A DNA stretch of 64,000 bases from the NCBI GenBank assembly GCA_963770955.1, contig CAVYRK010000011.1, forward strand, positions 906,745 to 970,744, written 5' to 3'. The notes under the pieces are model-generated. The model did no database searches, was not told the origin of the DNA, and worked only from the letters and a program-made list of their open reading frames with translations. This stretch comes from an uncultured Actinomycetota bacterium. Lineage in GTDB: Bacteria > Actinomycetota > UBA4738. Of this stretch, positions 42,857 to 45,380 are shown piece by piece; position 1 is the first letter of the stretch; every line of letters begins with the position of its first letter. The position numbers were made by a program, and so were the translations under genes.

Positions 42857-43576
42857 CACGTCTGTTACCACCGAACGGCCATCCGTTCGGGGGCCGGGTC
42901 ATTTCTGCCCGGCTCTGCATGTCGCCATGCAGGTCGGACCATATCTTCACCTCAGACCGTGAGGTGTTCGGCGTATGGTCTCTGAGGATTCTGGCTGCCT
43001 ACACACGATGGATCCGGCGATAGCGGCCGCCTCCGTTCATGGAGACTGCACGTTGCCGAAGGCATCGGAAGCCCTCTGCGCTCAGGTGCTCGCCTTGCTC
43101 CATCGCTCTCACGATGGACACGAAGGTCTCGAGCTCCTGCTGTTTCGCGCTCAGAAGGGGGTTCGTCTCGAAGAATGGGATGACCCTGGTCAGAAGGTCG
43201 GTTCGCTTGCGAACCACGTACACCAGCGTCGCGTCGGCCGAGCCGGCATGGTTCTGCCGGATGCGGCCGCAGCCGAGGCGTCGCGCTCTCAGGTCGAGGA
43301 CCTGACGGCGCTCCGCGTTCTGGCTGACATGGAACTCAGGGACGAGTTGCCAGCCGGCAACCGTCGATGCGTTCCTCTGTACGGCGACGTGGAACGTTCC
43401 CTCCCCGTCGACGAAACCCGCGATGTAGGCATCCAGCCTTTCCTGCTGATTGACCGCACCTGACGCATTGTCACTGCACACGACGGGAAGCTAACAGCAG
43501 CCTCCGACGTGGCGAGTAGCGCAGGATGCTCGGCGTTTCCAGCATTTGGCCGAATTTAGAGACAGCAAGGTCTCCT
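42857..43576 (-). mobile_element. Group I intron in 23S rRNA after E. coli U2604, carrying a LAGLIDADG ORF
   Basis: 720-nt insertion between GAGACAGU and UCGGUCCC. The guide sequence GCUGUCUC pairs with the 5' exon GAGACAGU, including the U.G wobble. Core elements are P AAAUGCUGGAAAC, Q AAUCAGCAGG, R CCUCAGAGACCAUA and S GAAGAUAUGGUCC. The last nucleotide is G. Confidence 0.88.
42999..43481 (-). CDS. LAGLIDADG homing endonuclease (single-motif type) inside the L2604 intron
   Basis: Contains YIAGFVDGEGTF and family blocks LGCGRI, VIPFFETNPLLSAKQ and MNGGG. The ORF lies between the intron Q and R elements. An ATG in the P element (43545) is one frame off and may be the true start. Confidence 0.85.
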   Translation of the reverse strand: MCSDNASGAVNQQERLDAYIAGFVDGEGTFHVAVQRNASTVAGWQLVPEFHVSQNAERRQVLDLRARRLGCGRIRQNHAGSADATLVYVVRKRTDLLTRVIPFFETNPLLSAKQQELETFVSIVRAMEQGEHLSAEGFRCLRQRAVSMNGGGRYRRIHRV

Positions 43577-44202: not shown

Positions 44203-44249
<47 letters not shown>

Positions 44250-44588
44250 GGATTCTGTTACTTGAAGACCGGTCGAGGCTGCACGATCCACTCGATCGGC
44301 GGGCTGGTCGTTTCCGCCAGCCTCCTCACGTCGCCGTGAGGTCCGGACCATCTCATCCTCTTCCGGGTCGAAGGAAGAGGGCCGGCATATGGTCTCTGAG
44401 GATTCCCGATCCCTATCGGAGGGCTCGGGCCTTTCCTGCTGGTTTTCCGCACCTCTCACGTTGTCACTGCCCGACTCACTCGGACGAGTAGTGGAGGATC
44501 CACCGGGTTTTCCAGCATATAGCCGGCTGCTCACCGCACCATCACTGATGCGGGGGGCAGCGCCCCCGGCCTGCCTGGGGGCTTTCCT
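44250..44588 (-). mobile_element. ORF-less group I intron in 23S rRNA after E. coli U1931
   Basis: 339-nt insertion between CCUAAGGU and AGCGAAAUUCC. It has the same P/Q/R/S core as the other two (UAUAUGCUGGAAAAC, AACCAGCAGG, CCUCAGAGACCAUA, GAUGAGAUGGUCC). A short hairpin replaces the endonuclease ORF. Boundaries are ambiguous by 2 nt because of an AG repeat. Confidence 0.8.
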
Positions 44589-44596
44589 ACCTTAGG

Positions 44597-45380
<784 letters not shown>

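Follow-up and report, generated by a model that had tools for sequence, protein, structure and literature searches.

Group I introns are held to end invariantly in a guanosine (ωG), and this terminal G is considered essential because it occupies the guanosine pocket of the ribozyme for exon ligation. How, then, should one regard a group I intron in a ribosomal RNA gene that ends in another base? This question is raised by a stretch of 64,000 nucleotides (nt) from an uncultured Actinomycetota bacterium (GTDB lineage UBA4738; GenBank assembly GCA_963770955.1, contig CAVYRK010000011.1, positions 906,745 to 970,744), hereafter called the window, whose 23S rRNA gene carries three insertions that we designate I1, I2 and I3; the second of these, a group I intron of 339 nt, ends in C. 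In the reading that we prefer, and to which we assign a probability of roughly 60%, I2 would be a structurally intact intron of the L1931 (I-CpaI) site that has lost its homing-endonuclease open reading frame (ORF), that is a member of a large clade from Actinomycetota whose terminal position (ω) need no longer be G, and that splices by means of P9.0 and P10 without ωG.

The rRNA operon lies on the minus strand of the window, to which all coordinates given below refer. The 16S, 23S and 5S genes occupy positions 49332-47810, 47492-42564 and 42451-42335, respectively, and all three fit their own models over the full length and with high scores. The match of the 23S gene to the bacterial model is complete (positions 1-2925, 2538 bits), yet it extends over 4929 nt where the model has 2925 nt; exact exon landmarks place the three insertions within the gene. 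I2 was found at positions 44588..44250, between U1931 and A1932 of the large subunit (LSU) rRNA, as delimited by the exon landmarks CCUAAGGU and AGCGAAAUUCC; the numbering is that of the Escherichia coli rrlB gene. An initial annotation of this DNA, made from its letters alone, had given the same span and the same site after U1931. It had also pointed out the missing terminal G, and indeed the 3' end of I2, ..GUAACAGAAUCC (in a longer form AGUAACAGAAUCC), directly abuts A1932, the first base of the exon AGCG. The ω position is hence taken by C44250, a base that could pair with the invariant G44344 of the joining segment J7/9. The 3' ends of I1 and I3, ..GUAACAGACGUG (longer: GGUAACAGACGUG), possess the terminal G.

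I2 is a paralogue of its two neighbors, with which it aligns through the 5' leader, P3-P5, the Q element, and the long segment comprising R/P7, P3', P8, P7', P9, P9.1 and P9.2. Its previous description as the ORF-less sibling of two ORF-bearing introns with a shared P/Q/R/S core is borne out by this alignment: in the L6 region, I1 and I3 have LAGLIDADG ORFs of the PF00961 family, and I2 has a hairpin (CCCGAGCC/GGAUCGGG, positions 44429-44405) in their place. The L1931 lineage is characterized by a LAGLIDADG ORF with a single motif, situated in a peripheral loop; this ORF is absent from I2, in which only the P6a hairpin is found. ORF-less derivatives are a stage to be expected in such a lineage, and the relatives at L1931, which come both with an ORF (about 780 nt) and without one (about 300-430 nt), fit the proposal that I2 represents the ORF-loss stage of the homing cycle.

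An alignment of I2 with 19 ORF-less relatives (n = 20) was folded with RNAalifold, P7 and P9.0 being added by hand. The program recovers P1, a hairpin in L1, P2, P3, P4, P5 with its extensions, P6/P6a, P8, P9 and P9.1. In the resulting model of 88 pairs, 95.3% of the cells are paired and 48 pairs show changes on both sides; none of 500 shuffles matches this model, a statistic that is inflated by the kinship of the aligned sequences, and sliding the partners by 1-3 columns lowers the paired fraction to 32-46%. The minimum free energy of I2 has a z-score of -4.2, and every invariant column of the clade is present in it. The group I core (P3-P9 with the P3/P7 pseudoknot and the P4-P6 domain) is complete, and the alignment of I2 to the Rfam model RF00028 (Intron_gpI), a search with a group I covariance model that had been recommended by the initial annotation, agrees with this fold, aligning the P3-P9 core at 37.1 to 38.6 bits (E-values of 4e-8 to 2e-7; gathering score 50).

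The 5' strand of P3 (44527-44522) pairs with its 3' strand (44386-44381), as seen by RNAalifold, covariation and the Rfam alignment, and the segment so bounded (44381..44527) encloses P4 (44516-44512/44442-44438), the P5 domain (44506-44447), P6/P6a and the 5' strand of P7. The AUG of the P element (UAUAUGCUGG) that had attracted attention does occur in I2, as an ordinary part of the conserved P4 strand. P6 (AGGA/UCCU) together with the P6a hairpin CCCGAGCC..GGAUCGGG occupies positions 44399..44437, the location of the LAGLIDADG ORF in I1, I3 and many relatives. The 5' strand of P7, GAGACCAU (44389..44396), contains G44396, the bulged A44395, and G44394 of the guanosine-binding site, and it pairs with the 3' strand AUGGUCC (44345..44351; covariation, Rfam alignment). 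P7 is nearly invariant and 97.5% paired among the 20 sequences; its pocket, read from the sequence as G44394-C44346 with the bulged A44395, is a G-C pair in 20/20. A switch in pocket specificity from G-C to A-U that would match a non-G ω was considered, and is not seen in these sequences. Outside the P3 span lie P2 (44536..44551; 6/6 pairs with double changes, 100% paired), which is missing from I1 and I3, the P8 hairpin (44357..44380; 6/9 pairs with double changes), and the peripheral hairpins P9 (with a GCGA tetraloop), P9.1 and P9.2 (44268..44341; RNAalifold, covariation). Between P9.2 and the 3' strand of P9.0, a GUAACAG heptamer (44255..44261) is found in the same form in I1, I2, I3 and the relatives; it is invariant in the family, but was also part of the search pattern and was in that way partly selected. 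A complementary partner for it was sought within the intron, and none was found.

Is the missing G peculiar to this one window? A pattern scan that considered one genome per species and required the 3' motif in front of AGCGAAAUUCC yielded at least 119 loci, nearly all from Acidimicrobiia, Solirubrobacterales or other Actinomycetota metagenome-assembled genomes (MAGs). Of the 97 relatives with both junctions, 49 have an intron that ends with G, 33 one with A, 14 one with C and one with U, so that 48 lack the canonical base; a terminal C as in I2 is found, for instance, in the relatives labeled L035, L051, L053, L065 and L089. Two further scans relied on 23S exon probes and were free of selection on intron motifs. 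In the Solirubrobacterales, 18 of 46 genomes carry an L1931 intron, of which 12 end in A and six in G. Among the matches listed for the Acidimicrobiales, the intron is present in 57 of 116 loci, and 38 of its 52 complete representatives lack the terminal G (A 30, G 14, U 5, C 3). In a neighbor-joining tree of the core sequences, ω changes its state at least 16 times, and at least eight of these changes lead from G to another base. Many of the non-G members retain a full-length, ORF-sized insert. Taken over the samples (for the Acidimicrobiales, among the matches listed), the share of relatives from soil Actinomycetota without a terminal G ranges from about one half to three quarters.

These data bear directly on the suspicion that the 3' end of I2 reflects a base-calling or indel error, or that the operon is a dead rRNA gene copy. 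Only one single window is at hand for I2 itself, and an apparent frameshift in the ORF of the nearby I1 (see below) points to small errors or decay in its vicinity. However, the exact tail of I2, UCC followed by the exon AGCG, recurs together with the complementary GGA in J7/9 in six other genomes, and these were assembled by Illumina k-mer/SPAdes procedures as well as from long reads. Introns without a terminal G form the majority in two orders (the Solirubrobacterales and, among the matches listed, the Acidimicrobiales), I2 possesses all invariant columns of its clade, and the 23S, 16S and 5S genes are full-length and score highly; in complete chromosomes of relatives, moreover, a non-G L1931 intron is located in the only 23S gene that could be detected. 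Neither the indel raised by the initial annotation nor its notion of a dead rRNA gene copy is supported by these findings, and we consider an artefact or a decayed gene very improbable. As judged from the sequences, the non-G end is a trait of the family and not a sequence error.

Several further observations concern the terminal base and the distribution of the introns. A second type of L1931 intron, about 740 nt in length and without the GUAACAG motif (L230, L239, L253, L254; Solirubrobacterales), ends with GAGUAAGA(C/U)AUUA in front of the exon AGCG; since its last base is likewise A, a non-G ω is not bound to one sequence lineage. The few G-ending members within the hairpin clade (L026, L071, L094, L113) exhibit poor P9.0 pairing in the standard register, and L071 (..GUUUCG) is better accommodated by P9.0(UU)-C-G, as though a G had been inserted after the usual ω; these cases hint that the terminal G was acquired and lost more than once. 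Even very close relatives with an identical 43-nt 23S probe are polymorphic for the presence of L1931 introns (as seen in the 57 of 116 Acidimicrobiales loci among the matches listed and in the 18 of 46 Solirubrobacterales genomes), which is consistent with ongoing gain and loss.

Another way to account for the missing G is provided by an AG repeat, to which the initial annotation had drawn attention. With both junctions moved by 2 nt, the intron would be inserted between G1933 and C1934, reach from GAAAGCC to ..AAUCCAG, and end in a canonical ωG. The repeat is present, 35 of the 48 non-G relatives likewise begin with AG, and G1933 is indeed paired to C44560 in the helix GGUAG/CUGCC. The proposed register is testable through P9.0. 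All members of the family continue after P7' (..GGUC) with C-G-n3-n4, followed by P9; P9.0 is identified by the pairing of n3 with ω-1, observed in 40 of the 49 G-ending members. When the non-G members are read in the U1931 register, n3 pairs with ω-1 in 47/48 and n4 with ω-2 in 39/48, with G-C, A-U and U-A as the types of pairs, whereas G1933 as ω would leave these two pairs in only 3/48 and 22/48. With each combination counted once, none of 5000 shuffles reaches the pairing of the U1931 register, while the slid one performs no better than chance. An independent count on the alignment of 20 sequences found 89.5% of the P9.0 cells paired in this register (covariation score 0.847) and 20% after a slide of +2. 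In I2, the P9.0 strands are formed by G44343 and A44342, which follow the invariant G44344 of J7/9 (44342..44344; comparison of relatives), and by UC at ω-2 and ω-1 (44251..44252).

Three further lines of evidence speak against sliding the boundaries. Thirteen of the 48 non-G relatives begin with UG, AA, GA, UU or GG and are therefore unable to slide; a slid register would give them a mutated rRNA. The G-ending relatives place ωG straight after P9.0 without a spacer of 2 nt, and one of them, L004, has the same CGGA in J7/9 and the same tail CAUC as I2, but a G where I2 has C. The slid register would also convert position -1 into a G paired to C and would give up the invariant U.G wobble at U1931. 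The counts for P9.0, those for P10 (see below) and the relatives that cannot slide lead us to reject the slid register, which we regard as quite improbable. While the repeat is real, the placement of G1933 at the splice site fails, and the comparison of sequences fixes the register at U1931, with C44250 as the ω of I2.

The pairing of both exons with the internal guide sequence corroborates this register. According to RNAalifold, GGU (1929-1931) and the first two intron bases AG pair with CUGCC, and U1931 forms a wobble with G44558 in 20/20 sequences, as is canonical for a 5' splice site. The 5' strand of P1 (G1929, G1930, U1931 and intron A1, G2; positions 44587..44591) is 99% paired, with the 5' splice site after U44589. 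P1 was previously described as weak, with GGU/GCC and CCU/AGG pairs around an internal loop (GCCCCCAGG, and the GCC of AAAGCCCCCAGG), but this stretch turned out to be the 5' arm and the loop of a covarying hairpin in L1 (44563..44581; arms 44581-44576 and 44568-44563; 5/6 pairs with double changes) that caps P1. The GCC..AGG arrangement is available to only 2/20 relatives and was discarded; the true guide, CGCUGCC (44562-44556), is invariant from G42 onward. Since CUGCC of the invariant GCUGCC (44561-44556; 20/20) directly 3' of the L1 hairpin pairs with GGUAG, P1 is short but canonical, and instead of an internal loop both RNAalifold and conservation give a hairpin-closed GGUAG/CUGCC helix with a canonical U.G wobble. 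The same guide provides GCC for GGU in P1 and CGCU for the beginning of the 3' exon, A1932-G1935 (44246..44249), in P10. P10 (AGCG/CGCU) has three invariant pairs and is 92.5% paired, a value that drops to 37.5% upon sliding by +2. I2 accordingly possesses both a P10 and a P9.0 in front of its 3' splice site, and P1 and P10 together make the guide sequence an unbroken splint of 7 bp across the ligation junction GGU^AGCG.

These elements are better preserved in the non-G introns than in their G-ending relatives. A contiguous P10 of at least 3 bp is found in 48/48 non-G members, while 18 of 50 G-ending members have no P10, and P9.0 is likewise kept more strictly in the former group. This stricter conservation of the helices that dock the 3' splice site in step 2 may reflect compensation for the lost ωG contact, although shared ancestry may partly explain it. 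The lability of ω is, furthermore, a matter of the insertion site. In the same superfamily, the terminal G is kept in 112 of 114 introns at L1917 and in all of about 25 introns at L1923 (eight, plus 16 tandem partners of L1931 introns, plus I1); because L1923 introns situated only 8 nt upstream in the same rRNA keep their G, the lability is specific to L1931.

Such a pattern would also arise if the fold were kept but exon ligation were defective, so that only the first, G-dependent cleavage or no reaction at all takes place and the ribosome tolerates an unspliced insertion, or a break in the 23S rRNA at 1931/1932; ω would then drift, since ligation is not needed. The tree, in which ω behaves as a free position, and the restriction of its lability to L1931 are what this scenario predicts. 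In addition, L1931 is the very site of SnLSU.1 from Simkania negevensis, described in the title of the published report as an unspliced group I intron in 23S rRNA; going by this title, an L1931 intron may stay in the rRNA. The conservation of P9.0 and P10 in I2 nevertheless argues for use of its 3' splice site: both helices serve only the docking of this site, yet they are stricter in the non-G members, and the catalytic core (the P7 pocket, J8/7, P3/P8) is invariant. Insertions at position 1931, which is part of the interface region around H69-H71, should harm the ribosome, and non-G introns with endonuclease-sized ORFs are common and keep invading genomes with a single 23S gene. On balance, we deem a ligation-defective intron unlikely.

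How strongly the hosts depend on such introns can be judged from gene copy numbers. In each of six complete Solirubrobacterales chromosomes (OY969707.1, OY970161.1, OY969580.1, OY970237.1, OY970282.1, OY970274.1), the 43-nt 23S probe has one match, which is the gene with the L1931 intron ending in A, although a strongly divergent second copy would escape such a probe. The rRNA gene copies within one genome are usually near-identical. With an ωA intron in their sole detectable 23S gene, these six bacteria must build working ribosomes from such a precursor.

Under the reading that I2 splices without ωG, self-splicing is predicted to proceed by two transesterifications. In a canonical first step, an exogenous guanosine bound in the P7 pocket (G44394-C44346, bulged A44395) would attack after U1931, the 5' splice site being marked by the U1931.G44558 wobble in the short, hairpin-capped P1 (GGU+AG/CUGCC). 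For the second step, the 3' splice site would be held by the 2-bp P9.0 (G44343 A44342 : U44252 C44251) and by P10 (AGCG/CGCU), and the 3'-OH of U1931 would attack the bond between C44250 and A1932 while the pocket is devoid of guanine. Ligation might occur unaided or be assisted by LAGLIDADG maturases, such as the proteins of I1 and I3. Since ωG drives the full-length circularization of group I introns, which leaves the exons unligated, its loss would be expected to abolish this harmful side path.

A number of points weigh against this mechanism. Canonically, ωG takes the place of the exogenous guanosine in the P7 pocket during step 2, and in model introns a mutated ωG severely impairs the ligation step; for a pyrimidine at ω, we know of no experimental precedent. 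Aligned sequences directly provide the fold and its register, show that P9.0 covaries and that P1, P10 and P7 are conserved, and reveal that ω is labile across the family, though at L1931 only; exon ligation is deduced solely from the selection that acts on P9.0 and P10. The invariance of the exon leaves no room for covariation in P10, whose CU pairs with the intron AG in P1 as well, so that G42 is the only P10-specific evidence. The kinship noted above raises the apparent strength of the shuffle tests, and the RF00028 score of I2 (37.1) stays under the gathering score of 50, as do those of its siblings (40.1 bits for I1 and 32.2 bits for I3); the splice sites lie outside the coverage of this model. 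Finally, the copy-number result pertains to the Solirubrobacterales only, whereas the type of I2 belongs to the Acidimicrobiales clade.

To our knowledge, the 23S intron Cbu.L1917 of Coxiella burnetii is the only precedent for a group I intron without ωG. Its terminal base is reportedly A, splicing is said to occur in vitro and in vivo, and it is said to have been presented as a unique exception. The title of the study describes a self-splicing Coxiella 23S intron without a canonical ωG (Raghavan et al. 2007, J Bacteriol 189:6572), and both Coxiella 23S introns are reported to be spliced. I2 resembles Cbu.L1917 in being a bacterial 23S group I intron of the 1917-1951 cluster with a non-G terminus in an otherwise intact ribozyme. 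Each is one of two introns that surround a very short exon (34 nt in Coxiella and 8 nt in the window). The two differ in their sites (L1917 versus L1931), in the pyrimidine found at the ω position of I2, and in their frequency: the Coxiella intron was reportedly put forward as an isolated case, whereas an ω other than G, be it A, C or U, is common in whole clades of L1931 introns from Actinomycetota. The L1917 scan for the GUAACAG superfamily, which found 114 introns, did not retrieve the Coxiella intron and thus gave no sign of close kinship. Two L1917 introns of this superfamily, in MAGs of Fraserbacteria and Acetothermia (L147, L149), are exceptional in lacking the terminal G and share their insertion site with Cbu.L1917; they end with ..GUAACAGAAGACA in front of AACGG, with A at ω and a complementary P9.0 (J7/9 CGGU).

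Introns with LAGLIDADG ORFs are known at L1931 from Thermotoga, Synechococcus, Simkania, green-algal organelles and Acanthamoeba (Haugen et al. 2007). With these, I2 and its relatives share the insertion after U1931, the single-motif LAGLIDADG ORF (in relatives of I2), a complex P5 domain and a classical P7; the published introns are described without P2 (Haugen et al. 2007), whereas I2 has a covarying P2, a hairpin in L1 and no ORF. The hosts of the L1931 relatives in our analysis are uncultured Actinomycetota; the cultured Aquihabitans sp. G128 is without an L1931 intron, and no cultured host was found among the genomes scanned. The protein of the Thermotoga neapolitana 23S intron, which is listed at L1931, has maturase-like activity, and I1 and I3 encode paralogues of intron proteins of this type. 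In bacteria of the candidate phyla radiation, Rfam-classified group I insertions with LAGLIDADG ORFs occur at 1917, 1931 and 2604, the last of these sites being listed in PMC11270868. The literature that we searched, with incomplete coverage, contained no account of C or U at ω, a clade-wide loss of ωG, its restriction to L1931, or a prevalence of such introns in Actinomycetota.

The 23S gene of the window, which is 90.6% identical to that of the Actinomycetota MAG L038, houses I2 in close company. I1 (45350..44597, 754 nt) follows ...AUAACGGU (U1923), carries its LAGLIDADG ORF in L6, and is separated from I2 by an 8-nt micro-exon, CCUAAGGU (1924-1931; 44596..44589), that is defined by the exon landmarks. 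The same tandem of L1923 and L1931 introns with an 8-nt micro-exon is present in 16 other genomes (L007, L008, L017, L025, L034, L036, L040, L044, L057, L067, L078, L094, L101, L104, L105, L117), and only where the P1 of the L1931 intron is confined to GGU. CUAA of the micro-exon then stays available to the P10 of the upstream intron (UUAG in I1), and the micro-exon appears, from these sequences, to be shared out between two ribozymes. Skipping of the 34-nt exon has reportedly been observed in Coxiella, and by analogy exon skipping may be a risk for the 8-nt micro-exon as well.

The LAGLIDADG ORF of I1 displays an apparent frameshift near its 3' end (window positions 44700-44810, minus strand): frame 0 reads ..RIVELAFFHEPARQ.. 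up to a late stop codon, while the +1 frame, ..SSMNQRGKQRRYTLEEVL.., matches the C-terminus of the I3 protein (..AVSMNGGGRYRRIHRV, followed by a stop). Possible causes are a decaying homing gene and a homopolymer error around TTTCTTCC. I3 (43576..42857, 720 nt) is located between GAGACAGU and UCGGUCC (U2604/U2605), the two pseudouridine positions of E. coli; it possesses an apparently intact LAGLIDADG ORF of 160 amino acids in L6, a long P1 of 8 bp (GAGACAGU/GCUGUCUC), and, like I1, a canonical ωG.

Extended to the family, the reading of I2 developed here gains a wider reach. The chances are about even that a large natural clade ligates its exons without ωG, with A, C or U as the last base and with the 3' splice site set only by P9.0 and the P1-P10 splint, in about half of the sampled Acidimicrobiales 23S genes (among the matches listed) and in about 40% of a group of Solirubrobacterales. 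In such a clade, the circularization and 3'-hydrolysis side reactions that damage the host rRNA may be disabled as well. The non-G introns at L1931, assembled independently from abundant soil bacteria and, in six chromosomes, situated in the only 23S gene detected, have retained the core of the ribozyme along with 3'-docking helices that covary strictly. Their sisters in the same rRNA keep the G. Annotation pipelines should not "correct" intron boundaries to the nearest G. If these introns indeed splice, they would represent a natural mutational series on step 2 without ωG and on the suppression of circularization; if they are not spliced, the ribosomes of their hosts would have to tolerate 300-800 additional nucleotides, or a broken rRNA, at the subunit interface. 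Both results would be informative.

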